A stretch of 64,000 bases of DNA, taken from contig JBAXOF010000001.1 of NCBI GenBank assembly GCA_037133375.1, positions 4,724 through 68,723 of the forward strand, in the 5' to 3' direction. The position numbers and the translations under genes are program-made. Under the pieces are notes generated by a model. It did not search any database. It saw only the letters and a program-made list of their open reading frames with translations, and was not told where the DNA came from. Of the stretch, positions 9,790-26,921 are shown piece by piece (the first letter of the stretch is position 1; each line of letters opens with the position of its first letter). The DNA is from Verrucomicrobiota bacterium (GTDB lineage Bacteria > Verrucomicrobiota > Verrucomicrobiia > Verrucomicrobiales > Akkermansiaceae).

Positions 9790-11145
9790 ATGACTGACAT
9801 GAACGCATCCCCGATCCGGCGCATCTCCGGACTCACGGCCACCTCCATCGTGGTGGCCAATATCATTGGCGTTGGTATTTTCACCAGCCTCGGGTTTCAG
9901 GTCGGCGGCTTGCCCAGCGGCTTTGCCATCCTGATGCTGTGGTTGGTCGGCGGCGTGTGCGCTATGTGCGGCGCGCTCTGTTATGCGGAATTGGCCACCG
10001 CCTTGCCAAGGTCGGGTGGCGAGTATCATTTCCTGGGCACTATCTATCATCCGTCACTGGGCTTCATGGCCGGCTGGATTTCCGCCACCGCGGGCTTTGC
10101 GGCACCGGTGGCCTTATACGCGATGGCCTTCGGCACCTACCTCCACGGCGTCGTGCCCGGCGTGCCGCCGCTGGCGGCCTCGCTGGCGGTAGTGTGGCTG
10201 GCCACGCTGCTGTTGTTAGGCGAGGTCAAGCTGGTTAGCGCGTTTCAAAACGCCTCAACGCTGCTGAAGGTGGCTTTAATAATCGGGTTGATTCTAGCGG
10301 GATGTTTCATGGGGGAGGTGCAACCGGTGTCGTTTTTGCCGCAAGCGGGTGATGGCGGGCGGATTGTCAGCGCGCCCTTTGCGGTGAGTCTGGTGTATGT
10401 GATGTTCGCCTATTCGGGGTGGAATGCTTCGACCTATATTGCGGGCGAAGTGCGCAATCCGTCACGCACGCTGCCGCTTTCGGTGGGACTCGGCACCTTG
10501 TTAGTGATGGTTTTGTATCTGGCGGTTAACGCGGTGTTCCTGCGCAGCACCCCGATGGCGGAGATGAAGGAAATGCCCGACAAGGTGGCGGTCGCCCTAA
10601 CTGTCGGACCGCATTTGTTCGGCGCGGCCGGGACCCGCATCATGGCGGGCCTGATTTGCGTGGGACTCATATCGACCATCAGTGCCTTGATGTGGATCGG
10701 CCCGCAGGTGACGGTGGTCATGGGGGAGGATCTGCGCGGCTTGCGCTGGTTTGCCGCCAGAAACCGGCGTGGCACCCCGGTGCGTGCCACCTTGGCCCAA
10801 TTCGGGTTGGTCAACTTGTTTTTGCTCACCTCGAGCTTTGATCAAGTGGTCAACAGCGCCATGTTCATCCTGCAACTGTGCTCGTTTCTAACGGTCATGG
10901 GGGTGTTCGTGCTGCGCTATAGGCGGCCGGACTTGAAGCGACCCTATCGGACCTGGGGCTACCCGGTCACGCCGCTGGTGTTTCTCGCAGTGTCGGTATG
11001 GATGCTCTGGCACCTGCTGTGCTCCAGACCCACCGAGTCGCTCATCGGTTTAGGCACCGCCGCCGTCGGCCTCATCCTCTACTTGCTTTCCGCGAGAAAT
11101 GCTCCAACATCCAGCCCAACCCCTACCCACCATGAGCCGAATTAA
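9790..11145 (+). CDS. APC-family amino acid permease
   Basis: About 12 TM; TM1 motif VANIIGVGIF, LCYAELATALPRSGGEY, TM6 FAYSGWNAS, C-terminal RRPDLKRPYRTWGYP. Confidence 0.93.
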   Translation: MTDMNASPIRRISGLTATSIVVANIIGVGIFTSLGFQVGGLPSGFAILMLWLVGGVCAMCGALCYAELATALPRSGGEYHFLGTIYHPSLGFMAGWISATAGFAAPVALYAMAFGTYLHGVVPGVPPLAASLAVVWLATLLLLGEVKLVSAFQNASTLLKVALIIGLILAGCFMGEVQPVSFLPQAGDGGRIVSAPFAVSLVYVMFAYSGWNASTYIAGEVRNPSRTLPLSVGLGTLLVMVLYLAVNAVFLRSTPMAEMKEMPDKVAVALTVGPHLFGAAGTRIMAGLICVGLISTISALMWIGPQVTVVMGEDLRGLRWFAARNRRGTPVRATLAQFGLVNLFLLTSSFDQVVNSAMFILQLCSFLTVMGVFVLRYRRPDLKRPYRTWGYPVTPLVFLAVSVWMLWHLLCSRPTESLIGLGTAAVGLILYLLSARNAPTSSPTPTHHEPN

Positions 11146-12367
11146 CCGATCCATTGCAGTGACAGGCGTCGCGTGCCTGTTAGCCGCCCACGTGCTGGCC
11201 CAAGATCCACAACCCGCACCAGTGGCCATCCCGGTGGCTGCCGCGCCAGTGGCCGCGGCTAATCCGCTCAACGACACCGCGCGCCTCTTGGCCGGCATGC
11301 CGCCGTCCGCCGACCCGATCATGGCGGAGTTGATCAAGGAAAGTTCGTGGCAACAACACGCGAAGTTTTTCGACACGGCGTGGGCGAACTTGGAAAAAAA
11401 TCAAATCTCTAAAGTGCGGGCCTGGGCCCGGACTAACATTCCTGACGCCTTCGCCGCCAAGGGCACCGCGTTCTATATGTTCAGCGGCCCGGATTTCCTC
11501 TACGCCGACACGTTTTTCCCCCAAGCCGACACTTATGTCCTGTGCGGCATCGAACCGATCGGGCCGTTGCCGGATGTGTCCAAGCTGCCGCCGCACGCGC
11601 TGGGCGGCGAGTTGCACGCGCTCCAGGCGTCGCTCAATTCCGTGCTCAACCTGAGCTTTTTCATCACCAAGAAGATGAAGGATGATTTCCAGAACCACAC
11701 CTTGAAAGGCACTCTGCCGGTTCTCTATATTTTCCTGGCACGCTCGGGCATGACCCTCACCGATGTGAGTTATGTGGGACTCGATGCGGACGGCGTGCTC
11801 ACTCCCCAACAAGACGCCACCCGCAGCGCCAAGGCCACCGCTCCCGGCGTGCGCATCCATTTCCTGGCCGCCGGGTCCACCACGCCGCGCACCCTGTATT
11901 ATTTCAGCACCGATATCTCGGACGGCGGCTTGAAGCAAAGCGGATTCCTCAAGTTCTGCAAAACCCTCGCTCCCGGCATTAGTTGCGTGAAGTCCGCCTC
12001 CTACCTCATGCATGAAAGTTATTTCTCCGCAATTCGCGCTTTCTTGTTAGAAAGCTCGACCACCCTGGTGCAGGATGACTCCGGCATCCCGGTTTCCTTC
12101 TTTGCGGCCGATACCTGGAAGATGGCGTATTTCGGCAGCTATCCCGGGCCGATCGCCTTGTTCAAGAACTGCTTCCAACCGAAACTGGCGGAGGCCTATC
12201 GCACGACCAAGCCGGAACCGCTCAACTTCGGCATCGGCTACCGCTTCCGCGCCGGCGAGTCCACCCTGATGGTCGCCACACGCAAGCCGGCAACCGGCAC
12301 CGCGCCGCTACCCAAGAGTGAACCTGACGCGCTCGCGCCGCGGGCAGTGGTGGTGCCGGCACCGTAA
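11132..12367 (+). CDS. Conserved hypothetical exported protein, possibly methyltransferase-like fold
   Basis: Signal peptide (MSRINRSIAVTGVACLLAAHVLA-Q). Start overlaps the permease 3' end by 14 nt. Motif-like segments FYMFSGPDFL, YVLCGIEP, VKSASYLMH, VQDDSG. Function is inference only. Confidence 0.7.
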   Translation: MSRINRSIAVTGVACLLAAHVLAQDPQPAPVAIPVAAAPVAAANPLNDTARLLAGMPPSADPIMAELIKESSWQQHAKFFDTAWANLEKNQISKVRAWARTNIPDAFAAKGTAFYMFSGPDFLYADTFFPQADTYVLCGIEPIGPLPDVSKLPPHALGGELHALQASLNSVLNLSFFITKKMKDDFQNHTLKGTLPVLYIFLARSGMTLTDVSYVGLDADGVLTPQQDATRSAKATAPGVRIHFLAAGSTTPRTLYYFSTDISDGGLKQSGFLKFCKTLAPGISCVKSASYLMHESYFSAIRAFLLESSTTLVQDDSGIPVSFFAADTWKMAYFGSYPGPIALFKNCFQPKLAEAYRTTKPEPLNFGIGYRFRAGESTLMVATRKPATGTAPLPKSEPDALAPRAVVVPAP

Positions 12368-12441
12368 GCTGCGGCCATTCTAACATGCCGGTGCCGGGAA
12401 GAGACTTGTGCGCCGGGCCGATCCATGCATGATCGCCGTCT

Positions 12442-13716
12442 ATGAGCGATTGGAATTTCATGACTGTGATCATTGTCCTCGGCGTGTTTGCGCTGTGGAA
12501 GCTGGACCTGGCCGCCACCCTGCTCAACCTCAAGACCTTCCCCGCCAGTGTCCCGCCGGACCTCGCCGACCTCATGAGCACCGAGAAGCTCGATAAGTCG
12601 CGCGACTATCTGCGCGTCAACGCACGCTTCGGCATCCTGCAATCGAGTTTCTCGCTGACCGTGTTGCTGTTGTTCTGGGGCCTGGGTGGCTTCGGTTGGC
12701 TCGACGGATTGGCGCGCGCATGGACCACCTCGGAATTGACCGCAGGGCTGGTTTTCCTTCCCTTGTTAGCCATCGGCCAAAGCCTGCTCGGTCTGCCATT
12801 TGAGGTGTATGACACCTTTGTCATCGAGCAGGGCTTCGGCTTCAACCGCGCCTCGCCGCGCACCTTTATCCTCGACCGCCTCAAAGGGTTGTTGCTGGCC
12901 GCGTTGCTGGGCCTGCCGCTGCTGGCCGCCGTGTTGTGGATTTTTAGCAACGTCGCCCATGCCTGGTTGTGGGCCTGGGCGGTGGTGACCACATTTCAAC
13001 TCATTCTCACCTACCTCGCGCCGTCGTGGATCTTGCCGCTGTTCAATAAGTTCACCCCAATGCCGGAGGGCGATCTCAAACAGGCGATCGAGGCCTTGGG
13101 CGAGCGCTGCCAGTTCCCTCTCTCAGGCGTGTTTGTCATGGACGGCTCGAAGCGCTCGACCAAGGCCAATGCCTTCTTCACCGGCCTGGGTAAACGTAAG
13201 AAAATCGCGCTCTTCGACACCCTGCTGGAAAAAAGCCGCACGGACGAGTTGCTCGGTGTGCTGGCCCATGAGATCGGTCATTTTCGCTGCGGCCACATCA
13301 AACAACGGCTCGCGGTGGGCATCTTGCAAAGCGCCGTCATCTTCTTTCTGCTAGGCCTGGCCACCGCCCCGCAGGGCGCCTTCGCCCGCGTCCTCTTCGA
13401 TGCCTTCGGCGTGCCCGCCATCTCGCCCCACGTCGGGCTTGTCCTCTTCATGATCCTGCTCGAACCCGTTAGTAAGTTGTTAGGTGTGCTCGCCAACGCC
13501 TGGTCGCGCAAGCACGAATTCGAGGCCGACGCCTATGCCGCCAAGGTCACCGGCAACGGTGGAGCCCTCGGCGAGGCGCTCAAAAAACTCTCCGTCGATC
13601 ACCTGTCGCATCCCGCTCCTGCCGCCTTGCGGGTGTGGCTGGATTATTCGCATCCGCCGCTGCTGCAACGCCTCGCTGCGCTGCGCAAACAGGCAAGCTG
13701 CCAGGCAAGCCCATAA
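12442..13716 (+). CDS. M48 family zinc metalloprotease (Ste24/CAAX prenyl protease 1-like)
   Basis: Multi-TM N-terminal domain; DGSKRSTKANAFFTG; zinc motif LAHEIGH; EFEADAYA; YSHPPLLQR. Confidence 0.93.
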   Translation: MSDWNFMTVIIVLGVFALWKLDLAATLLNLKTFPASVPPDLADLMSTEKLDKSRDYLRVNARFGILQSSFSLTVLLLFWGLGGFGWLDGLARAWTTSELTAGLVFLPLLAIGQSLLGLPFEVYDTFVIEQGFGFNRASPRTFILDRLKGLLLAALLGLPLLAAVLWIFSNVAHAWLWAWAVVTTFQLILTYLAPSWILPLFNKFTPMPEGDLKQAIEALGERCQFPLSGVFVMDGSKRSTKANAFFTGLGKRKKIALFDTLLEKSRTDELLGVLAHEIGHFRCGHIKQRLAVGILQSAVIFFLLGLATAPQGAFARVLFDAFGVPAISPHVGLVLFMILLEPVSKLLGVLANAWSRKHEFEADAYAAKVTGNGGALGEALKKLSVDHLSHPAPAALRVWLDYSHPPLLQRLAALRKQASCQASP

Positions 13717-13776
13717 ACTTGGCTGCGCTGCTTGCCTGCGAGAAAATTCCCACTAGTCTGCCAGACAGTTTCCGCC

Positions 13777-14598
13777 ATGCATCTGCTCCTCATCGGCCAC
13801 GGCTACTTGGGCCAAGCCATCACCCGCGAGTTCCGCCAGACCGGTTGGGACGTCACGCCTGTTTCGCTCGGCGGCGAGAATGGTGTGACCGCCTGTGATG
13901 TGGGTGCCGCGCACGCCGTGACGGCACTGCGCGGCGCGTGCGCGCCGGACCTCATCATCCATTGTGCCGCCTCCGGCCGTGGCGGTGCGGCAGCCTATCA
14001 ACATGTGTATGTCGATGGTTGCCGCCATCTGTTGAACACTTTTTCCGGCATTCCCCTGATCTTTACCTCCAGTTCCTCAGTCTATGCCCAAACCGACGGC
14101 TCGGTGGTCACGGAAGATAGTCCCACGCTGCCGACCCGCGACACCGGACATCTATTGTTAGAAGCCGAGGCCGTCACGCTTGCCGGCGGCGGGATTGTCA
14201 CCCGCCTTGCGGGCATTTACGGCCCAGGCCGCAGTGTGATCCTGAAGAAGTTTCTCGATGGAGAGGCCGTCATCGAAGACGATGGCGGGCGCTATCTGAA
14301 CCAAATCCACCGCGACGATGCCGTGAGCGCCATCCATCATCTCGCGACCCACACCGCGGCGTATCGTGGCGAGGTTTTTAATGTCAGTGACTCCGCCCCG
14401 CTGACCCAGCTCAGTTGCTACCAACACCTCAGCGCGCTATTCGGGCTGCCGCTGCCGCCAAGCGCCCCACGCGACGTCAACCGCAAGCGCGGCTGGACCC
14501 ACAAACAAGTCTCCAATGCCAAGTTGCAAGCCACCGGTTGGTGCCCGCAATTTTCCTCGTTTCTGACTGCGGCACCAGCCATCGCCCGCACTCTCTGA
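13777..14598 (+). CDS. NAD-dependent epimerase/dehydratase (atypical SDR, YeeZ-like)
   Basis: LLIGHGYLG Rossmann motif; FTSSSSVYA; RLAGIYGPGR; NQIHRDDA. Confidence 0.88.
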   Translation: MHLLLIGHGYLGQAITREFRQTGWDVTPVSLGGENGVTACDVGAAHAVTALRGACAPDLIIHCAASGRGGAAAYQHVYVDGCRHLLNTFSGIPLIFTSSSSVYAQTDGSVVTEDSPTLPTRDTGHLLLEAEAVTLAGGGIVTRLAGIYGPGRSVILKKFLDGEAVIEDDGGRYLNQIHRDDAVSAIHHLATHTAAYRGEVFNVSDSAPLTQLSCYQHLSALFGLPLPPSAPRDVNRKRGWTHKQVSNAKLQATGWCPQFSSFLTAAPAIARTL

Positions 14599-14608
14599 GC
14601 GCGGTGCC

Positions 14609-16411
14609 TCAGCCGGTGAAATATAGATACGCGCCGAGGATGCAGGCGAGGATCATCACCGATCCTAACACATCCATCCAATTCCAGCTCGCACGGGTGA
14701 GTGCCTTGTCCTCGGCGCTGGCTGTGGCAAAGGTCAGCCCTTGGATTTGCGGTTGATTGGGTTCTTCTGTTAGATAGCTGACCGTCACCATCACCACCGC
14801 CGACACCACGGTGATGAGGATGCTGAAATACTGGAAGTTGATATTGTTGATGATCCACAGGAACGAGCCATGGTCATATTCCTTGAACATGCCGAGCGTG
14901 ATGGGCGTGTCCACCGCCATGCGGAAGATGCCGACGATAAAACCGATGACCATCGCCCAAAAACAGCCGTGCTTGTTGAGGCGTTTCCAAAACACGCCGA
15001 AGAAAAACACCACGAAAATTGGCGGCGCGAGATAGCCCTGCACCGATTGCAGATATTCATAAAGGCCGTGCGCACCTTTGACCACGGGAATCCACAGCAG
15101 CGCGATGATCACCATTCCCACAGTGGCAAGCCGGCCCATTCTAACCAATTCAGACTGGCTCGCCAGGGGCCGGAGCTTTTCATAGATATCTACCGTAAAC
15201 AGGGTGGAGCAGGCATTGAACACGCCGGCGAGCGACCCCATCAGCGCGGAGAGCAAGCCGGCCACCACGATGCCGCGCAGCCCGGCCGGCAGCAGGTATT
15301 GCACCATCATGGGGAAGGCTCCTTGCGAACCTTTCTCGGCGAAGGCCGCGGTCATTTCCGGAATCACATCCTTCTTGACCAGCGCATAACAAATCAGCCC
15401 GGGAATGATGAACAAGTATACCGGAAATAACTTCAGAAAGGCGGCGAAGATGCTGCCCTCGCGGGCAACCTTTTGGTTAGGGGCACCGAGCGCGCGCTGG
15501 ACGATGTATTGGTCGGTGCACCAATACCACAGGCCGATGACCGGCGCGCAGATTGCCATGCCGAGCCACGGGAAGTTGTTGTTGAAATACCACGCCTGTT
15601 TGACAATGCCGCCGGCCGCGTTGAACTCCCTGACCGGTGCCCACGAGGCGGCCTGGCCTGCCGGCACCAGCGGTTTCCACAGGTTGAACATGTCCGTGCC
15701 GCAGATGTGCCGCAACTCGCCCCACCCACCGAGCTTGTGCAAGCCGTAAAAGGTCAGCACCGCGGAACCGCCGATCAACACCACCACCTGCACCGCATCG
15801 TTGTAGGCCACCGCGCGCATGCCGCCGAGCGCGGTGTAAAGTCCGGTTAGCACAATCACCGCGATCGAGCCTATCCAAAAGCTGTCGATCACCGTGTGGC
15901 CGATGGTGATTTGCATTTCCGGCAGCAAGGTGCCGAAGACGATGCCGCCGGCGAAAATCCCCACTGCGATTTTCGACAGGATGAAGGTGATGATGGAAAC
16001 GATCGAGAGCACGTAACGCGAGCCCACCGAGAAGCGCCGCTCCAGAAACTCCGGCATGGTGAACACCTGGGAACGCATGTAGAAGGGCACAAACACCCAC
16101 GCCAACACCAGCAGGCACCAAGCGTGGAGTTCGTAGTGGGCGAGGGCCATGCCGTCCTTGGCTCCAGAACCGGCGAGACCCACGATGTGCTCGGACCCAA
16201 TGTTGGAGGCAAAGATCGACGCCCCAATCACCCACCAGCCGAGATTGCGCCCGGCAAGGAAATAATCGGCCGCAGTATCCTTGTTTGTTCTAACAACCCA
16301 ACACGCCACGCCCAGCAGGATGGAGAAATAGATGGCGATCATCAGCCAGTCGATAGGGGCCATGTGGCTGGTCACGGCGGCCAGTGGCGCGTGCGGCAGG
16401 TGGAGTTGCAT
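14609..16411 (-). CDS. Sodium:solute symporter (SSS/SGLT-like sugar transporter)
   Basis: YFLAGRNLGWW, ASNIGSEH, YTALGGMRAVAYND, WYWCTDQYIVQRAL, LLSALMGSL...FNACSTLFTVDIY. Alternative start at 16363. Confidence 0.95.
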   Translation of the reverse strand: MQLHLPHAPLAAVTSHMAPIDWLMIAIYFSILLGVACWVVRTNKDTAADYFLAGRNLGWWVIGASIFASNIGSEHIVGLAGSGAKDGMALAHYELHAWCLLVLAWVFVPFYMRSQVFTMPEFLERRFSVGSRYVLSIVSIITFILSKIAVGIFAGGIVFGTLLPEMQITIGHTVIDSFWIGSIAVIVLTGLYTALGGMRAVAYNDAVQVVVLIGGSAVLTFYGLHKLGGWGELRHICGTDMFNLWKPLVPAGQAASWAPVREFNAAGGIVKQAWYFNNNFPWLGMAICAPVIGLWYWCTDQYIVQRALGAPNQKVAREGSIFAAFLKLFPVYLFIIPGLICYALVKKDVIPEMTAAFAEKGSQGAFPMMVQYLLPAGLRGIVVAGLLSALMGSLAGVFNACSTLFTVDIYEKLRPLASQSELVRMGRLATVGMVIIALLWIPVVKGAHGLYEYLQSVQGYLAPPIFVVFFFGVFWKRLNKHGCFWAMVIGFIVGIFRMAVDTPITLGMFKEYDHGSFLWIINNINFQYFSILITVVSAVVMVTVSYLTEEPNQPQIQGLTFATASAEDKALTRASWNWMDVLGSVMILACILGAYLYFTG

Positions 16412-16435
16412 GTTCGGGGTGTTGTATGTTAGATA

Positions 16436-17533: not shown

Positions 17534-17629
17534 GGTTGGTGGTGGTGTGTTAGAATGGGTCTTGTAAAGTGCCATCCGGCGTGCTGGCCATGGTTGGGAT
17601 CACAGCCTCAGACTCAGCCGCCCGGTGTC

Positions 17630-19423: not shown

Positions 19424-19443
19424 GCGAATGCGCAGGTGGGGCT

Positions 19444-19455
19444 GACGCAGCCTAG
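19444..19455 (-). promoter_or_regulatory. Putative -10/discriminator element CTAGGCTGCGTC upstream of the Ser/Thr kinase
   Basis: The same 12-mer lies just upstream of the NA37 gene (26927-26938). TAGGCT fits TAnnnT. Confidence 0.4.
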
Positions 19456-19613
19456 CATCCCACGCGGGACAACGAAACAAAATTTCACCGGCTTTTCAGG
19501 CGAATGTGCCGCTGCATTGTCTTGATTTATCATCCCCGTGAATTACCCTCAGCGCGACCGGACGGGTGGAACACCACGGGCGATGCCGCCCCCTCCCGCC
19601 CCGGATATCTTCC

Positions 19614-20534: not shown

Positions 20535-21442
20535 TCCGTCTGTCCGATATTGGCGAAGACGCGCTCATCCAGCGCCTTATCCGCCTGCTGCCGCGCGATC
20601 CAAACCCTAGCGCCGGCCCCGGTGACGATTGCGCGGTGATCGATCTTGGCCCCAGTCATGACAGACTCCAATTGCTCAAAACCGACGCCCTCGTCGAACA
20701 TGTCCATTTTCTTCCCGCCGCCCCGCCGCGGGCGGTCGGCTGGAAAGCTGCGGCCCGGGTCGTCTCCGACTTCGCCGCCATGGGCGGGCATCCGGAACAC
20801 TTCCTCATCACCCTCGCCCTGCCACCGCATACCCCTGTAGCGTGGGCGGAAGACCTCTATCGCGGCATCGGCGATTGCCTTGAACGCTTCGGCGGCGTCC
20901 TCGCCGGCGGCGAAACCTCCAGCGTCCCACCTCACTCCGCAGCTGTCATCGCCGTCGCCGCCACCGGCTCGGTCCGCCGCACCCATCTCACCCTCCGGTC
21001 CACCGCCTGTCCCGGCCAGGCCCTCCTCGTCACCGGCGCCCTCGGCGGCGCCCACCTCGGCAAACATCTCACGTTCACCCCGCGCCAGAAAGAAACCGAT
21101 TGGTTGGTATCCAATTTCAAGCCGGCGGCGATGATGGATTTATCGGACGGGTTGGGGCGGGATTTGCCGCGCATGGCGGCGGCCAGTGGGTGCGGGTATG
21201 AGGTGGTGCGTGGGGAGTTGCCGGTGACGGCCGGGTGCACAGTGGAGCAGGCGCTGGGGGAGGGGGAGGATTTTGAGATTCTGCTGGCGCTGGAGGCGGC
21301 TGCGGTGCCGGGGTTGCTGGCGGCGTGGGGGCAAGCGTTTCCGGGTTTGGCGCTGACCCGGGTAGGGCAATTGGTGGCGGCGGGAGCGGGTGAGTCGCTG
21401 CACGGCGGGTGGGAGCATTTTTCCAAACCCAGGGCATGGTGA
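20531..21442 (+). CDS. thiL: Thiamine-monophosphate kinase
   Basis: IGEDALI, GPGDDCAV, KTDALVEHVHF, VSDFAAMGG, LAGGET, MMDLSDGL, GEDFEIL. Confidence 0.93.
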   Translation: MIRLSDIGEDALIQRLIRLLPRDPNPSAGPGDDCAVIDLGPSHDRLQLLKTDALVEHVHFLPAAPPRAVGWKAAARVVSDFAAMGGHPEHFLITLALPPHTPVAWAEDLYRGIGDCLERFGGVLAGGETSSVPPHSAAVIAVAATGSVRRTHLTLRSTACPGQALLVTGALGGAHLGKHLTFTPRQKETDWLVSNFKPAAMMDLSDGLGRDLPRMAAASGCGYEVVRGELPVTAGCTVEQALGEGEDFEILLALEAAAVPGLLAAWGQAFPGLALTRVGQLVAAGAGESLHGGWEHFSKPRAW

Positions 21443-22356
21443 AGAGTGCAAGCGATGGAGGTGGCGTGAGCGAGGCGGAGGAGCGCGCATTTTTGGACTT
21501 CCAAAGCACGGAAAAGAGTGCGTCGCAACGCACGCTGGTGAATTATCGGGAGTGCCTCGCGGCGTATCGAGCGTGGCGCGGCGCGAGCTTCAGCGGTTGG
21601 CGGGAGGCGAGCGCTGATGATTTCCGGGATTATCTTTTTGCGCTGCTGAAGCGCGGGTTGCAGCGCTCGACCATTCGCTTGCGTTTTGCCGCGCTGCGTT
21701 CGTTCTACAAATACCTGGTGTTGCGCCGCGGTCTGGCCCGCAGCCCGGTGGCGGAAGTTCTGCTGCCCAAACCGGCGCGCGGCCTGCCGGTGGTTCTGAG
21801 CATCGCCCAAATTGACGAACTGCTGACCCTGCCGCTGCGCTTGCCCTTGGATAAGAAGACGCCCGTGTGGCTGCCCCTGCGCGATGCGGCGATTCTTGAA
21901 CTTTTTTATTCCAGCGGGTTGCGGATTGCCGAGTTGTTAGCACTGGAGGTCAAGGACGTGGATTTTATCGGTGAAACTGTCCGCGTAATCGGCAAGGGCG
22001 CGAAGCAACGCATCGCGCCCGTCGGTGGCCCGGCGCTTGCGGCAATCCAGCGCTACCGGCAGGAGGCGCTGGTCACTTCCGGCCCGTTGTTTCTGAGCAA
22101 ACTGCGGCGGCGTATCACCCAGCAAGCCGTGGATCAATTGCTTAGAAAATACCTCAAACACAGCAGTATCCCGTTTGGGATCAGCCCGCACAAACTGCGC
22201 CACAGTTTTGCCACCCATCTGTTGGATGCCGGCGCGGACCTCCGCAGCGTGCAGTCCCTGCTCGGCCACGCCTCGCTCTCCACCACCCAGATCTACACCC
22301 ACGTGACCAAGGAACGGCTCAAGACCGCCTACGACCACGCCCACCCGCGGGCCTGA
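21436..22356 (+). CDS. xerC: XerC/XerD-type tyrosine recombinase
   Basis: N-terminal SAM-like domain; RDAAILELFYSSGLRIAEL; GKGAKQR; HKLRHSFATHLL; LGHASLSTTQIYTHV. The XerC versus XerD assignment is uncertain. Confidence 0.85.
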   Translation: MVKSASDGGGVSEAEERAFLDFQSTEKSASQRTLVNYRECLAAYRAWRGASFSGWREASADDFRDYLFALLKRGLQRSTIRLRFAALRSFYKYLVLRRGLARSPVAEVLLPKPARGLPVVLSIAQIDELLTLPLRLPLDKKTPVWLPLRDAAILELFYSSGLRIAELLALEVKDVDFIGETVRVIGKGAKQRIAPVGGPALAAIQRYRQEALVTSGPLFLSKLRRRITQQAVDQLLRKYLKHSSIPFGISPHKLRHSFATHLLDAGADLRSVQSLLGHASLSTTQIYTHVTKERLKTAYDHAHPRA

Positions 22357-22446
22357 GTGCCCTGCTGGATATGCCAAATTGCCGAGGTAAGCAGTTGCAT
22401 TGAAGACCTTTCCATCGTAGTTGTCCCCGCTCTGCCGCTCCTTGTC

Positions 22447-23082
22447 ATGAAATCGCCCCGCCACCTTATCACGCTTGCCGCCCCGGTGCTGGCGATACTG
22501 CTTGCCAGTTGTGCCACCAAGAAGCCCCCGCCCAGCGCCCCCGCCAAGTTCGTTAACCCTTATCCAGAGGGCACCTACCAACATTTCACAGCGGCACGCA
22601 ACTACCCGAAAACCTACACCATTTGGAAAAACCAGGAAATCCTCTCCCGCACCAACCCCGGCAACTCCCATGTCCGCATCGACCTCACCCAACAACGCGG
22701 GTTCCTCATGAATGGTGACCAGGTCGCCCTGGACTATCCGATTTGCTCCGGTCGCCCAGGCCATGAGACGCCCACCGGAAACTTCAGCATTCTCGAAATG
22801 CTGGTGGAAAAACAATCCAATGTGTATGGACGCATCTACGACGCCGAGGACGTCTGCGTCAATAAGGATGCCGACATCACCAAAGACCCGGTCCCCGAGG
22901 GGGGGCGTTTCGACGGTGCTCCCATGCGCTACTGGATGCGCCTGACCAACGACGGCGTGGGCCATCACATCGCGCTGGTCCGCCGCGCGCCCGCATCCCA
23001 CGCCTGCATCCGCGGCCCGGTCGGGGCCATTCCCATTGTCTATTCCAAAGTCAAACTTGGCACCAAGGTGACCGTGGAATAG
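22447..23082 (+). CDS. L,D-transpeptidase (YkuD) family lipoprotein
   Basis: Lipobox LLASC; TPTGNFSI; catalytic region GHHI...ASHACIR. Confidence 0.88.
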   Translation: MKSPRHLITLAAPVLAILLASCATKKPPPSAPAKFVNPYPEGTYQHFTAARNYPKTYTIWKNQEILSRTNPGNSHVRIDLTQQRGFLMNGDQVALDYPICSGRPGHETPTGNFSILEMLVEKQSNVYGRIYDAEDVCVNKDADITKDPVPEGGRFDGAPMRYWMRLTNDGVGHHIALVRRAPASHACIRGPVGAIPIVYSKVKLGTKVTVE

Positions 23083-23142
23083 GACGCGCCTCACCGCACC
23101 GCCATTGATTGTTAGACAGGGCGTTGGCAGGGCTGCCAAGCC

Positions 23143-24426
23143 GTGAAAATCCCCCTCGCGATGATGCCCCGCAACAAACCCGAAATCATGGCCCCGGCTG
23201 GCGACTGGACCAGCCTGCGTGCCGCGATCCATGCCGGTGCGGATGCCGTGTATTTCGGCCTGCGCGGCTTCAACATGCGCGACAATTCCAACAATTTCCG
23301 CGGGTCCGAGCTGGCACGGTTGGCCCGGACGTGCCAGCAGGCCGGGGTCCGCGCCTATCTCGCGCTCAACACCATCATTTACGAGAACGAAATTCCGCGC
23401 ATTCAACGTCTGCTTGATATGGCTGCTGCCGCCGGCATTGATGCGGTTATATGTTGGGATATGGCCGTGATTGAAGCGGCCACCGCGCGCGGTCTGCCGG
23501 TGTTTCTCTCCACCCAGATGTCATGCGCCAACTCCGCGAGCCTGGCCGCGTTCTATCGGACGTTTGGCATCCGGCGCTTTGTGCTCGCCCGCGAGTGCTC
23601 GCTGGCGCATATCCGCGCCATCCGCCGCACCCTCCCCCGCCTGCTCGGCGCGGACGCCGCCCACATTGAACTCGAGGTCTTCGCCCATGGCGCGATGTGC
23701 GTATCCATCAGCGGCCGCTGCTTCATGTCGGAGTCCACAGTGGGCAAATCCGCCAACCGCGGCCAATGCACCCAGCCGTGCCGCCGTGCCTATCAAATCA
23801 CCGGCAGCGATGACGACACGGCTTTCCGCCTGGGCGACGCTTATCTGCTTAGCCCGCAAGACCTGTGCACGCTCCCGTTCATCGAGCAATTGCTCGAGGC
23901 CGGCGTGAACAGCCTCAAGCTCGAAGGCCGCGGCCGCGCCCCGGAATACGTCAGCACCGTCACCTCCGCCTATCGCCGCGCCGTGGACTTTTATTGCGCC
24001 AACCGCCGCCGGCCCGGATTCCAACAGGATTTCCAACAACTCAAGGACTCCCTGATGGTGGAACTCGACGGCGTCTATCACCGCGGACGTGCGTCAGGGT
24101 TTTTCCTGGGTCGCCCGCTCGACCAGTGGACCGGCACCCCTAACAGCCAGGCCGTGGACAAAAAACTCCACGTCGGTGAGGTCGTCAAATTCTATCGCAA
24201 GGCCGGAGCCGTGGAGATCCGCGTTTGCGCCACGGAGTTTGCCCTGGGCGATGAGCTGCTCATCATGGGCCCCACCACCGGCGTCGTGCGCGTCCGCGTG
24301 ACCTCCATCCAAATCGAGCACCAGCCGCAGTCGGCAGCCCGCCGCGGCCAAGCCGTCGCAGTCCAACTCGAAGCCACAGTGCGCCCCGGCGACCGCGTCT
24401 ATCGGGTGACCCACCGGGAAAGATGA
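23143..24426 (+). CDS. Peptidase U32 family protein (TrhP/RlhA-like Fe-S RNA hydroxylase family)
   Basis: MAPAGD...GADAVYFG; Cys cluster [10 protein letters not shown]...[10 protein letters not shown]; LSPQDLC; SLKLEGR; C-terminal beta-barrel extension. Confidence 0.9.
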
Positions 24427-24484
24427 AGCATTATGTCGATTCTTCGGACTTGCCAAACCGGCGGCAGTGTGGCCAACTCTTGTG

Positions 24485-25297
24485 GTGAAAGCTTACCTTG
24501 ATTTGATGCGGGATGTGTTGGCCCATGGCGAGGCGCGCCCGGACCGGACAGGGACTGGCACGCTGGCCGTGTTCGGGCGCCAAGTGCGCTACGACCTGCG
24601 CGAGGGTTTTCCGTGCGTGACCACCAAGAAGTTGCACCTGCGCTCGATCATTCATGAGTTGTTGTGGATATTGCGCGGGGAAACCAATACCCGTTACCTC
24701 AACGACCACGGGGTGACCATCTGGGATGAATGGGCGGATGCGGACGGCGAACTCGGGCCAGTCTATGGCAGACAATGGCGGGCGTGGCCGACTCCGGATG
24801 GCCGGACTATCGATCAGATGCACCTGCTGGTGGATGAATTGTTAGGAGATCCATATTCGCGGCGGCATATTGTCTCGGCGTGGAATGTGGGGCAGATCCA
24901 TCAGATGGCGCTGCCGCCGTGTCACCTGTTATTCCAGTTTTTTGTGCACGCGCCGCGCGATGGCGGGCGGGCCGGGTTGTCGTGCCAACTTTACCAACGC
25001 AGCGCGGATTTATTTCTGGGGGTGCCCTTCAACATCGCCTCCTATGCCTTGCTCACGCAAATGGTGGCGCACGTCTGCGACTATGAGGCACGCGAGTTCA
25101 TCCATAGCTTCGGCGATGTCCACCTTTACGCCAACCATCTGGAGCAGGTCAATCTGCAGCTCTCCCGCGAGGTCAGGCCGTTGCCCACGCTGTGGCTCAA
25201 TCCGCTCGTCAAAGACCTCGATGCCTTCACCTTCGATGACATCCGCTTGGAAAACTACGACCCGCACCCGGCGATCAAGGCGCCGGTGTCCGTTTGA
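24485..25297 (+). CDS. thyA: Thymidylate synthase
   Basis: [38 protein letters not shown], catalytic [28 protein letters not shown]. Confidence 0.97.
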
Positions 25298-25304
25298 ACG
25301 GAGC

Positions 25305-25775
25305 ATGCAGCGGCACCTCACAGCGATAGTGGCGATGACGCCGGATCGGGTGATCGGGCGCGACGGGCAACTGCCATGGCACTTGCCGGAGGACCTGGCG
25401 TTTTTCAAGCGGACCACGCTCGGTCATCCGGTGGTGATGGGGCGCAAGACCTACGACTCGCTGGGCCGGCCGCTGCCCAAGCGCCGCAACATCGTGCTCA
25501 CCCGCGATCCGAATTGGTCGGCACCGGGCGTGGAGGTGATTCATGCTCCGGCGGAGTTGGCAGAATTGCCCGGGTTGGAACTGCGGGTGTTCGTCATCGG
25601 CGGGGCGGAGGTCTATCAGGCGTTTCTGCCGCTGCTGGATGATTTGTTAGTAAGCCACGTGTTTGGGAAACACGCGGGAGACACCCGCTTCCCGGAGTTC
25701 GCCGCCGCCTTCCCGAGGTGCGAGTTGCTGGAAATTCACCCGGACTTTGAAGTGCGCCGCTGGTGGCGGGGGTAG
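25305..25775 (+). CDS. folA: Dihydrofolate reductase
   Basis: IVAMTPDRVIGRDGQLPWHLPEDL, VMGRKTYDSLGRPLPKRRN, VIGGAEVY, GDTRFP; starts 8 nt after thyA. Confidence 0.96.
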   Translation: MQRHLTAIVAMTPDRVIGRDGQLPWHLPEDLAFFKRTTLGHPVVMGRKTYDSLGRPLPKRRNIVLTRDPNWSAPGVEVIHAPAELAELPGLELRVFVIGGAEVYQAFLPLLDDLLVSHVFGKHAGDTRFPEFAAAFPRCELLEIHPDFEVRRWWRG

Positions 25776-25844
25776 GAAATCACTGGCATCAACCACGTGC
25801 ATCTGCGGCGGCGTTTGCTTTCCCGGGTCCCTGCCCACCGCCGC

Positions 25845-26921
25845 CTACACCGTCACGTCCCGATTGAAGAACACCTTGATGAATTTCATGCCCTTGGTGT
25901 CGTCGTAGCCGCGCTCGATGACGGCATCGGGCTTGCCGGCCAATGCAGGCTTGAGATGAATTTCCACGCCGGTGTCGAGTTTGATGACGGCACTGACTTT
26001 CTTTTTTGCCTTGGTGACGTCTTTCTTGGAGATGTCGAACGAGTCGTCGAGTCGGTGGCCTTGTTCTTTCTCGATTTGCGCGCGGTGGGCGGCGAACCGA
26101 GCAGCTGCGGCCGGGGTCTTGAGCACCTGCTCCTCGAATTCCTGCAGGCTGAATTTTTCCTTGTCCTCAAAGTAGCCGAGCGCGTTGCGGGCGGCGGTGC
26201 AAGGTTCCCACGGCGGGGCGTCATCGTTGCGGGCTTGCGCCTTGGCTTCCTCCTCGACAAAGGCCACCGCCATGCTGGCATATTTGTTAGTGAGGAACGG
26301 ACTATCAGTGATGGGCACCACACCGAGGAAATCCCGCACCCAAAACCGTGAATCGGTGCCGGAGCGGTCGAAGATCAGAATATGATAGCCCTTTTGCGGC
26401 TGCTGGTTGAGAATGAGGCAACCCTTGTCAAGCTTGTCCGGATTGATCCCCTGCTCGGCTGACAACTGCAAATCGCCGTTACGGGTGGCAATGCTCAGGA
26501 ATGGCACCACGCTTTCGGATTTTAGGATGCACAGGCCTTGGGTGAGTTCGCCGTTGACCTCGATGTCGCGGATGAGGCAAATGCAGAGATCTCCGGACTT
26601 GATGTTAGGATGGTTGGACTTGGAATACAGGCGCTTGGCGATGGCGCAACCTCTTTCTAACAAGCAGTCGGGGTCGGCGAAGATTGCGGTGGCGCAGGTG
26701 TTCATTTCATGCTGCTCCAAGGACGCATGATGACTGAAGCGGTGGCCGCCGAGGTTTTTGAACGGCTTGAGGAACAAGGCGGAGAGGGCCTCCTGGTCCT
26801 CGTCGGTGATGGTGCAGATCTGTTTCGACGTTAGCAGGGGTTCATCGCGTTGCGGGTGACCTACCTTGGCGAGGACGAGACCGGTGGTGATGGCGGAGGA
26901 AAAACGAAGCTTCACAGACAT
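25845..26921 (-). CDS. Nucleoid-associated protein (NA37/YejK-NdpA-like family)
   Basis: From MSVKLRFS: KRLYSKSNHPNIKSGDL, ILKSES, GINPDKLDKGCLI, FWVRDFL, IKLDTGVEI and IERGYDD...FIKVFF, the pattern I recall for the 37-kDa nucleoid-associated family. Confidence 0.75.
   Translation of the reverse strand: MSVKLRFSSAITTGLVLAKVGHPQRDEPLLTSKQICTITDEDQEALSALFLKPFKNLGGHRFSHHASLEQHEMNTCATAIFADPDCLLERGCAIAKRLYSKSNHPNIKSGDLCICLIRDIEVNGELTQGLCILKSESVVPFLSIATRNGDLQLSAEQGINPDKLDKGCLILNQQPQKGYHILIFDRSGTDSRFWVRDFLGVVPITDSPFLTNKYASMAVAFVEEEAKAQARNDDAPPWEPCTAARNALGYFEDKEKFSLQEFEEQVLKTPAAAARFAAHRAQIEKEQGHRLDDSFDISKKDVTKAKKKVSAVIKLDTGVEIHLKPALAGKPDAVIERGYDDTKGMKFIKVFFNRDVTV

Follow-up and report, generated by a model that had tools for sequence, protein, structure and literature searches.

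TGTTAG, a hyperabundant hexamer in one clade of freshwater Akkermansiaceae, and its possible likeness to DNA uptake sequences

The hexamer TGTTAG (CTAACA on the other strand) is strongly enriched, at the level of DNA and not of protein, in a single clade of freshwater Akkermansiaceae (Verrucomicrobiota), and the 64-kb stretch of DNA analysed here (the window) originates from a population of this group. The preferred reading of this word, an uptake-sequence-like recognition signal, is tentative, and we give it about three chances in ten.

Results

An exact count gives 55 copies in the window (34 TGTTAG and 21 CTAACA), where the original prediction had estimated about 54, and all 29 start positions that it listed between 10214 and 26662 proved exact, with no copy overlooked (Table 1). 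The 19 copies assigned to the glycan locus and the copy-free stretch at 50.3-59.0 kb were also recovered (19 copies past 28.3 kb; zero in 50290-59034), while the sensor-kinase region (1-9.8 kb) holds six copies, not four, and the GC content of the window is 58.4%, not 60-63%. The expected number of copies is 20.4 at order 0 and 10.3, 8.4, and 14.6 under Markov models of orders 1, 2, and 3, respectively, and TGTTAG ranks first among 2,080 hexamers at Markov orders 1 to 4. The codon-aware null that had been proposed as a check, namely 300 within-gene shuffles of synonymous codons in which the proteins, the codon usage of every gene, and the 8 copies between genes stayed fixed, gave a mean of 16.9 copies (sd 2.8, maximum 26; z = 13.4 for the observed number), and TGTTAG is also the top word among all hexamers under this shuffle. 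The sister words AGTTAG, CGTTAG, and GGTTAG, predicted to be rarer (8, 10, and 16 copies), number 9, 11, and 16, so the NGTTAG words are not equally frequent; the excess of the three is non-significant under the synonymous-codon shuffle (z 0.7-1.6).

Copies are enriched in all four open frame and orientation classes (6.2-, 2.8-, 8.0-, and 5.5-fold), in either orientation relative to transcription, and in intergenic gaps, which carry 8 copies in the window; the word is therefore a DNA-level signal, as had been proposed. Copies are also spread evenly along genes, with no within-gene position bias (KS p = 0.69). Of the 82 TTA codons, 24 in the window stand in the TG-TTA-G context. The claim that the word uses otherwise avoided codons holds for CTA, ACA, and AGA, which are rare, but not for AAC, which is the preferred Asn codon. 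The AT-enriched patch noticed around the copies is real but mostly generic, with little beyond what surrounds any AT-rich word (52-54% AT around TGTTAG and 49-51% around the sister words, vs. 40% in the background).

The word has a graded specificity. Its positions 1 and 3 are soft (pattern nG[T>A]TAG), and the enrichment is shared only by the position-1 variants (2.6-3.4-fold) and by A at position 3 (3.2-fold). No extended consensus around it was found. Spacing is random. Close pairs, whatever their kind, are scarce (only 3 gaps <50 bp), which leaves little room for inverted pairs of the terminator type and counts against the uptake reading. Certain lineages favour a variant, GGTTAG in L085 and TGATAG in L086 and L087, with dispersed, unique flanks, and these shifts are dialect-like. 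HIP1, uptake sequences, Chi, and a protein-binding or methylation site had been named as analogues; among these, Chi and polar signals in general are disfavoured, since 12 contigs together give a strand ratio of 98:84 without heterogeneity (chi2 = 9.1, df 10, p = 0.52), which reveals no strand polarity.

Comparison with related genomes, also proposed at the outset, points to one enriched clade. Its sample of about 200 kb (13 loci and the first 28.3 kb of the window) contains 201 copies in 203 kb, vs. 18 in 179 kb of the nearest non-enriched relatives (a sample of about 180 kb with GC and TA content equal to those of the clade), and is thus 9.5 times denser, at about one copy per kb (9-10 per 10 kb) in genes and gaps alike. 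The enriched loci are monophyletic and their sister lineage, L088, is at background, which therefore indicates a single origin. As a means of telling clade DNA apart the word is nevertheless poor, since viral loci of lower GC (37-50%) carry 5-8 copies per 10 kb, approximately the chance density at that GC and not far below the 9-10 of the clade; this, too, speaks against the uptake reading.

The sites occupy different places in different lineages and therefore arose by point substitution. The proposed check of orthologous sites revealed retention above background at 8-15% divergence (relatives of 85-92% identity); by about 25% divergence, most sites have moved. Between species B and the window, 10/11 sites are kept vs. 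0.43 expected (p = 0.0015). The thyA site at 24840 is common to L001 and L007, and the non-enriched relatives have TGCTGG or TGCTCG there. A word that served a function inside the cell would be expected to keep its individual sites just as well, and a HIP1-like methylation or nucleoid signal, as well as a repair bias, are rivals to the uptake reading.

The copies are unevenly distributed in the window: the part from 9.8 to 28.3 kb holds 30 of them and the longer part from 28.3 to 64 kb only 19 (binomial p = 1e-4). Measured against the synonymous-codon shuffle, the enrichment is about 10-fold in core genes, 6-fold in kinase genes, 2.6-fold in glycan genes, and about 1-fold in 46-60 kb, which bears out the predicted difference between core and accessory genes. 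The tetramer GTAC is purged from 1-27 kb and present in the glycan island (22 of the 24 sites in the window), and is therefore an independent mark of the foreignness of the island. This low-GC island is read as more recently acquired DNA. The suggestion that motif density tracks residence time fits these data, its basis being one island in one window.

Table 1. Regions of the window and all copies of TGTTAG (strand, that on which TGTTAG reads; A and B, species A and B)
Feature	Position	Strand	Details
Hybrid sensor histidine kinase / response regulator genes	1..9808		6 copies, ~6x codon-aware expectation
Core gene block	9790..28278		30 copies, ~1.6 per kb; amino-acid permease, M48 protease, epimerase, Na/solute symporter, PfkB sugar kinase, Ser/Thr kinase, CPBP protease, ThiL, XerC/D-type recombinase, YkuD protein, U32 peptidase, ThyA, DHFR, NdpA-family protein, fn3/discoidin protein
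Lower-GC surface-glycan locus	28437..64000		19 copies, ~2.6x expectation; 22/24 GTAC sites; Bac_transf, DegT, Wzz, ABC2/Wzt, GT4 glycosyltransferases, MBOAT, pyruvyl transferase
Motif-free stretch in glycan locus	50290..59034		no copy
TGTTAG	1210..1215	-	ORF 761-1441(-), TTG-TTA-GAT (LLD)
TGTTAG	2230..2235	-	ORF 1460-2584(-), GTG-TTA-GCC (VLA)
TGTTAG	5949..5954	-	ORF 2581-6072(-), ATG-TTA-GGT (MLG)
TGTTAG	6479..6484	+	ORF 6069-7274(-), TCT-AAC-ACA (SNT)
TGTTAG	7264..7269	-	ORF 6069-7274(-), TAT-GTT-AGA (YVR)
TGTTAG	8596..8601	+	ORF 7238-9808(-), GCT-AAC-ATG (ANM)
TGTTAG	10214..10219	+	ORF 9790-11145(+), TTG-TTA-GGC (LLG)
TGTTAG	10499..10504	+	ORF 9790-11145(+), TTG-TTA-GTG (LLV)
TGTTAG	11178..11183	+	ORF 11099-12367(+), CTG-TTA-GCC (LLA)
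TGTTAG	11433..11438	-	ORF 11099-12367(+), ACT-AAC-ATT (TNI)
TGTTAG	12045..12050	+	ORF 11099-12367(+), TTG-TTA-GAA (LLE)
TGTTAG	12380..12385	-	intergenic, 13 nt past stop of ORF 11099-12367
TGTTAG	12764..12769	+	ORF 12442-13716(+), TTG-TTA-GCC (LLA)
TGTTAG	13478..13483	+	ORF 12442-13716(+), TTG-TTA-GGT (LLG)
TGTTAG	14156..14161	+	ORF 13732-14598(+), TTG-TTA-GAA (LLE); conserved in A, B
TGTTAG	14665..14670	-	ORF 14609-16411(-), GTG-TTA-GGA (VLG); B keeps, A CGAACA
TGTTAG	14768..14773	+	ORF 14609-16411(-), CTA-ACA (LT); window lineage only (A CGTTAG, B CGTCAG)
TGTTAG	16290..16295	-	ORF 14609-16411(-), GTT-GTT-AGA (VVR); conserved in A, B, L082, L084
TGTTAG	16427..16432	+	intergenic, PfkB/symporter gene gap; conserved in A, B
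TGTTAG	16708..16713	+	ORF 16436-17575(-), ACT-AAC-AAC (TNN); window lineage only (A TGTGGG, B TGTTGG)
TGTTAG	17005..17010	+	ORF 16436-17575(-), GCT-AAC-AAA (ANK); conserved in A, B
TGTTAG	17548..17553	+	ORF 16436-17575(-), TCT-AAC-ACA (SNT); conserved in A, B
TGTTAG	17967..17972	-	ORF 17630-19480(-), ACT-GTT-AGA (TVR); B keeps, A ATAACA
TGTTAG	18154..18159	+	ORF 17630-19480(-), CCT-AAC-AGT (PNS); conserved in A, B
TGTTAG	18256..18261	+	ORF 17630-19480(-), CCT-AAC-AAG (PNK); A keeps, B CGGGAG
TGTTAG	18979..18984	+	ORF 17630-19480(-), GCT-AAC-ATT (ANI); conserved in A, B
TGTTAG	19725..19730	-	ORF 19566-20534(+), CTA-ACA (LT); conserved in A, B
TGTTAG	21935..21940	+	ORF 21409-22356(+), TTG-TTA-GCA (LLA); A keeps, B TGCTGG
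TGTTAG	23110..23115	+	intergenic gap preceding U32 peptidase gene
TGTTAG	24140..24145	-	ORF 23143-24426(+), CCT-AAC-AGC (PNS)
TGTTAG	24840..24845	+	thyA 24467-25297(+), TTG-TTA-GGA (LLG)
TGTTAG	25645..25650	+	DHFR gene 25314-25775(+), TTG-TTA-GTA (LLV)
TGTTAG	26285..26290	+	ORF 25845-27230(-), ACT-AAC-AAA (TNK)
TGTTAG	26603..26608	+	ORF 25845-27230(-), CCT-AAC-ATC (PNI)
TGTTAG	26657..26662	-	ORF 25845-27230(-), TTG-TTA-GAA (LLE)
TGTTAG	27774..27779	+	ORF 26992-28278(-), CCT-AAC-ACA (PNT)
TGTTAG	31353..31358	+	ORF 30407-31363(+), GTG-TTA-GAC (VLD)
TGTTAG	34363..34368	+	ORF 34137-36494(+), TTG-TTA-GTT (LLV)
TGTTAG	35752..35757	+	ORF 34137-36494(+), ATG-TTA-GGT (MLG)
TGTTAG	36491..36496	-	overlap with TAA stop codon of ORF 34137-36494
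TGTTAG	37265..37270	-	ORF 36514-37956(+), CCT-AAC-ATC (PNI)
TGTTAG	38874..38879	-	intergenic
TGTTAG	40043..40048	-	intergenic
TGTTAG	42062..42067	+	ORF 40966-42171(+), GTG-TTA-GAT (VLD)
TGTTAG	44526..44531	+	ORF 44186-45133(+), CTG-TTA-GAT (LLD)
TGTTAG	45442..45447	+	ORF 45144-46145(+), TTG-TTA-GAC (LLD)
TGTTAG	48053..48058	+	intergenic
TGTTAG	48874..48879	+	ORF 48093-49433(+), CTG-TTA-GAC (LLD)
TGTTAG	50284..50289	-	ORF 49276-50946(+), CTA-ACA (LT)
TGTTAG	59035..59040	-	ORF 58360-59898(+), CTA-ACA (LT)
TGTTAG	60086..60091	+	ORF 59905-60924(+), CTG-TTA-GGA (LLG)
TGTTAG	60674..60679	-	ORF 59905-60924(+), CCT-AAC-ACG (PNT)
TGTTAG	61777..61782	+	intergenic
TGTTAG	62941..62946	-	ORF 61867-64000(+), CTA-ACA (LT)
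TGTTAG	63994..63999	-	ORF 61867-64000(+), CTA-ACA (LT)

Discussion

We infer a protein that would read TGTTAG in double-stranded DNA without regard to strand, and that may have arisen or changed its specificity once, at the base of this freshwater clade. A weak genome-wide pressure would then convert near-matches to matches by point substitution where the encoded gene product allows it, mostly synonymously (CTG-CTG-G to TTG-TTA-G, NCC-AAC-A to NCT-AAC-A, CTG-ACC to CTA-ACA) and in some cases with an amino acid change. In long-resident DNA the density would have levelled off near one copy per kb, with recently acquired DNA lagging behind. The likeliest machine, by precedent, would be the DNA-uptake apparatus of natural transformation, in which the reader protein would have its putative place: word-bearing fragments would be preferentially imported and recombined, so that molecular drive would multiply the word in the way it does the USS in Pasteurellaceae and the DUS in Neisseriaceae.

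Published uptake sequences occur about once per kb and on both strands, with a minority to two-thirds of them in ORFs and one orientation in excess in reading frames; they are absent from genes without homologues and build up after transfer, and the pattern of TGTTAG matches theirs in these features (PMC2817400, PMC2346458). No bacterial motif of this sort turned up in full-text literature searches, in line with the original prediction, which knew of none for this lineage. Known uptake sequences comprise 9-12 conserved bases, and the longer ones show much larger excesses; TGTTAG is shorter (six bases, 12 bits, with no extended consensus) and its excess is modest (6-10-fold). To our knowledge, neither sequence-specific uptake nor natural competence has been reported in Verrucomicrobiota, and no competence genes were seen in the loci read. 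With its density in this clade, TGTTAG joins the few known hyperabundant words of bacteria: DNA uptake sequences, HIP1, and Chi.

Abundance and placement of TGTTAG in the window

A direct count of the hexamer TGTTAG and its reverse complement CTAACA revealed 55 copies in the 64,000-base window (34 and 21, respectively), and all 29 start positions that had been listed for the 10214-26662 region were correct, with no copy overlooked there. The sister words AGTTAG, CGTTAG, and GGTTAG are represented by 9, 11, and 16 copies. The GC content of the window is 58.4%, with 61-64% in most of its first 26 kb and 48-59% beyond 28 kb. Markov models built from the window itself predict 20.4 copies at order 0, and 10.3, 8.4, and 14.6 copies at orders 1, 2, and 3, respectively, and at orders 1 to 4 TGTTAG ranks first among the 2,080 strand-merged hexamers. 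We also used a codon-aware null model, in which synonymous codons were shuffled within each gene (300 shuffles), and in which proteins, the codon usage of each gene, and intergenic DNA were all preserved. It gave 16.9 +/- 2.8 copies (maximum 26) versus the 55 observed (z = 13.4), and TGTTAG was again the top word. Hence, the excess over a codon-usage-aware expectation, on which the original prediction depended, is present, and so is the distinction that it made between TGTTAG and its sister words, the numbers of which are unremarkable under the same shuffle. The overall enrichment of TGTTAG, as estimated from this shuffle and from the comparison of the enriched freshwater Akkermansiaceae lineages (hereafter, the clade) with their relatives, is 6-10-fold.

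To relate the copies to genes, we curated 50 ORFs in the window, supported by family matches and by gene calls on public contigs. Forty-seven copies are within these genes; the other 8 fall between genes, in short gaps, or overlap a stop codon. On the sense strand, there are 23 instances of TGTTAG read as nTG-TTA-Gnn and 3 read as nnT-GTT-AGn; for its complement, nCT-AAC-Ann accounts for 15 instances and CTA-ACA for 6. The remaining two frames of the word would bring stop codons. The TG-TTA-G context holds 24 of the 82 TTA codons of the window. The four open classes (24, 3, 6, and 15 copies in a per-gene recount) exceed the codon-aware null 6.2-, 2.8-, 8.0-, and 5.5-fold, respectively. Since all of them are enriched, the signal is independent of the transcribed strand and of any particular peptide, and acts on the DNA duplex. 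The copies are evenly spread along the genes of the window, with no position bias inside them.

The commonest form, nTG-TTA-Gnn, corresponds to the common tripeptides Leu-Leu-(Gly/Ala/Val/Asp/Glu), which could point to an artefact of protein composition, of codon or codon-pair usage, or of assembly. However, the z value of 13.4 persists when amino acids and codon usage are preserved, the reverse complement is enriched equally on the sense strand, and copies are present also in intergenic DNA. Moreover, the orthologues in non-enriched relatives spell the same peptides with CTG or CTC codons, and the word is found in independent ENA, JGI, and NCBI assemblies. We regard such an artefact as highly improbable: protein-level, codon-level, and assembly explanations were excluded by the codon-aware shuffle, the enrichment in all open frames, and the contrast between the clade and its relatives.

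The word is non-palindromic, with an A+T content of 67%. No consensus outside the six bases was apparent from position weight tables, whether these were built from 54 sites, from 182 sites, or from intergenic sites only, and the information in the flanks does not exceed 0.17 bit at any position. The AT-enriched patch noticed earlier around the word does exist, as its flanks are 52-54% AT versus 40% in the background, but it is hardly a property of this word, since the flanks of sister words are nearly as AT-rich (49-51%); the AT shoulders mostly mark the places where AT-rich words fit in a GC-rich genome. No RNA genes were found in the window by tRNA and Rfam scans. The dense block contains a gene encoding a protein with the NA37/NdpA (YejK-type) nucleoid-associated protein domain, which itself includes copies of the word (see the table). 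Occasional tandem or near-tandem copies in related loci, listed in the same table, are too few to form a pattern.

Distribution of the word among related bacteria

Judging by ThyA and the neighbouring genes, the window belongs to Akkermansiaceae (Verrucomicrobiota). The best genome match of its ThyA (87% identity) is in a lake MAG, and two contigs from a freshwater assembly in ENA contain sequence identical to that of the window. Public contigs extended the window by 6.9 kb, and several lake metagenomes contain populations related to it. A search with ThyA gave 80 loci, of which only the closest four (L001, L005, L004, and L007) are enriched, with, for instance, 16 copies in 12.4 kb of L001 and 23 copies in 20.8 kb of L005; the density in other Akkermansiaceae, in Luteolibacter loci, and in about 60 loci of unrelated phyla is at background. 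Among 80 metagenome loci found with the use of the Na/solute symporter, L082-L087 and L091 have 6-14 copies per 10 kb versus about 1 per 10 kb in the rest, including L088-L090, whose symporters show 82-84% protein identity. Two closer relatives, found via the PfkB kinase and designated species A and species B, have a density of 10-14 copies per 10 kb; over 8.6 kb, they are 92% and 85% identical to the window, respectively, at the nucleotide level.

The enriched loci group together as a single clade in a neighbour-joining tree based on the symporter, and the sister of this clade, L088, has 1 copy in 14 kb. As judged from these sequences, the enrichment of TGTTAG is of single evolutionary origin, with an on/off boundary to the sister lineage. 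Pooled loci of the clade contain 201 copies in 203 kb versus 18 in 179 kb of non-enriched relatives, while their GC content is 60.3% and 58.8%, respectively, and the frequency of the TA dinucleotide is identical. In most of the enriched loci that were examined, no hexamer outranks TGTTAG; in L085 and L086, it is surpassed only by GTTAGA, with which it overlaps. No convincing comparable word was found in sister lineages among the loci examined. In L095, a relative of 68% GC with a symporter 76% identical, CTACAA/TTGTAG is in excess (see the table), and the related words ACTACA and GACTAC are frequent too; this is probably a codon effect (C-TAC-AA).

The search with ThyA did not reveal any phage near the clade (at most 68% identity). 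In viral loci, the density of the word tracks GC content only, and AT-rich viral DNA has 5-8 copies per 10 kb by chance.

Gene order past the epimerase gene differs among close species: this gene is followed by genes of M48 protease and permease in the window, and by other sets of genes in species A and species B. A public contig with flanks 100% identical to those of the window (L081) contains 100 N in place of 679 bases, which include the end of a XerC/D-type recombinase gene and the start of a YkuD-domain gene; they represent masked data or an assembly gap.

Core block, glycan island and depletion of GTAC

Coordinates and TGTTAG content of the features discussed (blank cells, no value)
Feature	Sequence	Coordinates	TGTTAG copies	Fold over codon-aware null	Content
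Sensor-kinase genes	window	1-9808	6	~6
Core genes	window	9.8-28.3 kb (9790-28278)	30	~10
Glycan genes	window	28437-64000	19	2.6
46-60 kb stretch	window	46-60 kb		~1
NA37/NdpA-domain gene	window	25845-27230 (-)	3
Bases replaced by N in L081	window	22266-22944			679 bases
Run of N	L081	3123-3222			100 N
Indel in lake populations	window	19732-19777			44 bases to 11
Indel in lake populations	window	18173			21-base deletion in Ser/Thr kinase gene
Indel in lake populations	window	23085			10-base deletion before U32 gene
Start of first giant gene	window	61867
Continuation past window position 64000	L162	11963-20271			two giant genes, 1,378 and 1,341 aa
Past epimerase gene, species A	L164	6751-13978			HAD, OSBS, AMP-ligase genes
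Past epimerase gene, species B	L168	13839-16871			1,010-aa UvrD-family helicase, rhomboid protease, GluRS fragment
Tandem or near-tandem copies	L005	10813-10825			TGTTAGATGTTAGA
Tandem or near-tandem copies	L082	5910-5932	2		copies 17 bp apart
Tandem or near-tandem copies	L085	1703-1713			TGTTAGGTTAG
Contig with GGTTAG variant	L085	1-15791	12		GGTTAG, 16
Contig with TGATAG variant	L086	1-17265	14		TGATAG, 17
Contig with TGATAG variant	L087	1-9639	10		TGATAG, 14
CTACAA/TTGTAG excess	L095	1-21803			14 vs. 1.4 expected (order 2)

The anticipated difference in density between core and accessory genes is apparent in the comparison with the codon-aware null (see the table), and the difference in copies between the core block and the 28.3-64 kb region is significant (binomial p = 1e-4). 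In core DNA of the clade, the density is 0.9-1.6 copies per kb. Another word, GTAC, is rare in the window (24 sites vs. 72 expected), and its sites are at positions 4831 and 27254, and then 22 of them between 28248 and 62046, in the glycan locus, which leaves only one in the first 27 kb. This deficit looks like restriction avoidance. With its GTAC sites kept and its TGTTAG copies few, the island has neither purged the former nor gained the latter, which would fit a later acquisition of the glycan island; the GTAC pattern suggests a GTAC-specific restriction system in the lineage combined with such a later acquisition. Possibly, the density of TGTTAG and the depletion of GTAC, which tell resident from acquired DNA, could aid the binning and delimiting of the clade in metagenomes.

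In the window, the codon-aware shuffles also revealed an under-representation of GGCGCC and CAGCTG; in the pooled loci of the clade, GTCGAC and CAGCTG are under-represented. Beyond the glycan locus, the contig that continues the window (L162) contains two giant genes, both encoding GDSL-lipase and repeated cadherin/Big_9 domains.

Strand polarity and spacing

Over 12 contigs of the clade, the strand distribution of the word is 98:84 with no heterogeneity versus 50:50 (chi2 = 9.1, df 10, p = 0.52), while a Chi-like polarity of 75:25 would give a chi2 of about 55 on the same contigs. Most contigs are near 50:50 (e.g., 8:8 in L001, 12:11 in L005, and 6:6 in both L082 and L085). In the core block, the distribution is 22:8, whatever the gene direction, and this bias is inherited by species A and B; in L086, which shares the symporter gene, the bias is 11:3 and opposite to that of the window. 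We treat the core-block bias as a local, unexplained residual. In contigs with most genes on one strand, 55 of 98 copies of TGTTAG are on that strand, which is no more than the sense-strand preference explains, and replication-direction proxies, GC skew and gene strand, gave nothing consistent.

These data bear on the possibility that TGTTAG is a Chi-like word, which would switch a helicase-nuclease of RecBCD/AddAB type from degradation to recombination and would be selected in long-resident DNA. Chi sites (e.g., GCTGGTGG of Escherichia coli or AGCGG of Bacillus subtilis) are also short (5-8 nt), asymmetric, and rich in G and T, as are five of the six bases of TGTTAG; they are over-represented in core DNA, under-represented in foreign DNA, and different among lineages. 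To be the most over-represented word of core genes while scarce in an island is the signature used for the prediction of Chi sites, and 22 of the 30 copies in 9.8-28.3 kb are on the plus strand regardless of gene direction. However, Chi is oriented with respect to replication, while TGTTAG, counted by contig strand, has no consistent polarity across the 12 contigs; the balanced contigs, the opposite bias of L086, and the ordinary proportion on the main gene strand do not favour such a role either. TGTTAG contains TA, whereas the known Chi sequences are, to our knowledge, G-rich and without TA. The Chi of E. coli is about fourfold less dense than TGTTAG in the clade. We consider a Chi-like function unlikely. 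KOPS and other architecture-imparting skewed words, with a skew above 80% that flips at ori and dif, are likewise not matched by the 98:84 distribution, and a polar signal of either type, Chi or KOPS, is disfavoured.

The spacing of copies is random at short range (CV 1.07 vs. 1.00 +/- 0.07 for uniform placement, in contigs of at most 71 kb), with a mild deficit of gaps below 100 bp (9 vs. 15.8 +/- 3.7). Close pairs, counted irrespective of orientation, are few, and thus there is no sign of pairs of the terminator type.

Origin and persistence of the sites

When the thyA and symporter genes were aligned, the word was found at different codons in different lineages, and non-enriched relatives have ordinary codons (TGCTGG, TGCTCG, CCAACA, CTGACC) at the same places, which indicates that the copies were made by point substitution and not by insertion. 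Some of the substitutions changed amino acids, as in ATG-ACC to CTA-ACA and in GTG-GTG-G to GTG-TTA-G. New sites arise mostly via G-to-A and C-to-T changes, and several of them required two or more substitutions (TGCTGG to TGTTAG and CGGGAG to TGTTAG).

Once made, the sites tend to be kept. Of the 14 window copies in 13729-22362, 8 are shared with both species A and B. Species B retains 10 of the 14 (0.71) versus 0.43 for all hexamers and 0.34 for other hexamers containing TTA or TAA; conversely, the window retains 10 of the 11 copies of species B (p = 0.0015) and all 10 of species A (p = 0.013). The conservation of orthologous sites, which was proposed earlier as a check, is thus found, above the level of control hexamers, at 85-92% identity. 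At about 75% identity most site positions differ, so the sites outlast neutral sequence and yet turn over, and what is constant in the long term is the density of copies rather than their position.

In public runs, which were studied as Logan contigs, with sequence differences taken from the best 40 of about 1,500, related lake populations (about 85-95% identical; runs X3, X4, and X6) differ from the window by small indels (see the table). These contigs keep the hexamers at 14156 and 14768 intact, although several surrounding bases differ. Pile-ups of molecule ends were not seen in the Logan contigs.

A newly gained repair enzyme could account for the on/off pattern across the clade, and the word might be a neutral by-product, with no reader and no function, of context-specific mutation or of biased (Vsr-like) mismatch repair; the predominance of G-to-A and C-to-T changes and the equal enrichment on both strands would agree with it. 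A drive that acts on single mismatches needs, however, a depletion of one-off neighbours, and none of them is depleted (ratios of 0.7-2.1), including TGTTGG, TGCTAG, and TGTTAA as compared to relatives. This, together with the sites that needed at least two substitutions and with a retention better than that of comparable words, makes single-mismatch repair drive unlikely; the acceptance of amino acid changes also speaks against it. We find an explanation by mutation or repair improbable.

Specificity of the word and its variants

When the clade is compared to its relatives word by word, TGTTAG itself is 9.5-fold more frequent, changes at position 1 are 2.6-3.4-fold and A at position 3 is 3.2-fold more frequent, while for words altered at position 2, 4, 5, or 6 the ratio is 0.5-1.5. 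A halo produced by decay of sites would be symmetric across positions, and the asymmetry looks like graded recognition of the nG(T>A)TAG type. In some lineages variants match or outnumber the word itself: GGTTAG in L085, and TGATAG in L086 and L087, with one contig of 10-17 kb per lineage (see the table). In L085 and L086, which were inspected in this respect, variant copies are dispersed and have unique flanks. Such shifts are reminiscent of the dialects of DNA uptake sequences (DUS).

Possible nature of the word

TGTTAG belongs to a known kind of hyperabundant short genomic words, but it fails defining features of each named family among those that could be checked, namely, length and flanks (USS/DUS), palindromy and fold-excess (HIP1), polarity (Chi and KOPS), and avoidance (restriction targets). 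With artefacts excluded, single-mismatch repair unlikely, and polar signals disfavoured, what remains is a strand-indifferent recognition word, the predicted reader of which would have arisen a single time, at the base of the clade. Explanations of two kinds fit it: molecular drive of the uptake-sequence type and a cell-internal signal of the HIP1 type.

We tentatively rank the uptake-sequence-type drive first, by a narrow margin and with a probability of about 0.3, since among known hyperabundant unpolar words uptake sequences have a demonstrated mechanism and are also asymmetric, with graded positions. USS and DUS occur about once per kb on both strands and in several frames, with an excess of one orientation in reading frames, are absent from genes without homologues, and accumulate after transfer (PMC2817400, PMC2346458). 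In these systems, a receptor such as the minor pilin ComP lets competent cells favour DNA with the word in binding and uptake. TGTTAG matches the published properties nearly point for point, except for word length and fold enrichment. Like the USS of Pasteurellaceae and the DUS of Neisseriaceae, it is non-palindromic and without replication polarity, arises in coding DNA through point substitutions that sometimes change an amino acid, is denser between genes, accumulates in resident genes and is scarce in recently acquired ones, and is restricted to a single clade, with putative lineage variants. In contrast, USS and DUS have 9-12 conserved bases with an extended flank, while TGTTAG has only six, with generic flanks and no AT-tract; their excess is much larger, and they form inverted terminator pairs, which were not seen for TGTTAG. 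A hexamer is a poor discriminator, given its chance density in AT-rich viral DNA, and we know of no competence or uptake specificity in Verrucomicrobiota.

An internal signal of the HIP1 type comes next and is possible, though we would not expect it: TGTTAG might be a target of a clade-specific solitary DNA methyltransferase and/or of a sequence-specific nucleoid- or chromosome-organising protein, its density being kept by selection or by methylation-linked mismatch repair, as has been suggested for HIP1. The acquisition of a single enzyme or protein would be expected to give an on/off pattern of single origin, and the lack of polarity and the use of both strands and of all open frames agree with such a signal. 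Being an asymmetric hexamer in which G follows an A at position 5, TGTTAG is similar to the sites modified by adenine methyltransferases of the Type III, MmeI-family, and BREX systems (e.g., CAGCAG, TAGGAG, GGTAAG), which are likewise lineage-specific; we take this similarity as a lead only. Targets of restriction-modification and BREX systems are normally avoided or neutral in their host, as GTAC seems to be avoided here, and not tenfold enriched like TGTTAG; we know of no such target that is host-enriched. These systems are mobile and patchy, whereas TGTTAG is stably inherited by the whole clade. The graded position 3 (T 9.5-fold, A 3.2-fold) would be unusual for a methyltransferase, and no DNA methyltransferase gene was seen among the loci read.

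Like HIP1 (GCGATCGC) and the alternate HIPs of cyanobacteria, TGTTAG is hyperabundant, with about one copy per gene, inside and between ORFs, made by substitution, and lineage-restricted, with putative variants. The conservation of its sites above control words (10/14 from the window to species B and 10/11 in reverse) is of the kind used as an argument for selection on HIP1 (PMC5861425), and the variants of HIP accompany cognate methyltransferases (PMC4390886). HIP1 is, however, a palindromic GC-rich octamer of 15-300-fold excess, linked to cognate methyltransferases, while TGTTAG has six bases, is asymmetric and AT-rich despite the GC-rich genome around it, and has no known cognate methyltransferase; HIP1 also has a periodicity of 10-90 kb, whereas the TGTTAG contigs studied here are at most 71 kb long. 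The function of HIP1 is still unexplained after decades (PMC5861425, PMC4390886).

Finally, TGTTAG could be an undescribed chromosomal self-mark, the once-arisen reader of which would be outside the uptake machinery, RecBCD/AddAB, and any methyltransferase-repair pair, for instance a sequence-specific nucleoid-organising or self/non-self discriminating system. We rate this as rather doubtful and below the HIP1-type signal. The single origin and the clean boundary between the enriched clade and its sister lineage should make the responsible factor, including a reader of such a self-mark, findable by comparison of gene content.

Our literature search found no report of TGTTAG/CTAACA as a bacterial genomic word, nor of any uptake-type or over-represented word in Verrucomicrobia. 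Few hyperabundant short words are known in bacteria, chiefly USS, DUS, HIP1, and Chi, and each of them opened work on transformation, recombination, or chromosome structure. The word described here adds the phylum Verrucomicrobiota, with its abundant and mostly uncultured lake bacteria, and is among the shortest of its kind (6 bases vs. 9-12 in USS/DUS, the HIP1 octamer, and 5-8 nt in Chi). It is also an AT-rich word in a GC-rich genome, which pushes rare codons into ordinary housekeeping genes. If it were a true uptake signal, it would be the first known case of sequence-specific DNA uptake outside Proteobacteria and would imply frequent transformation in lake Verrucomicrobia.
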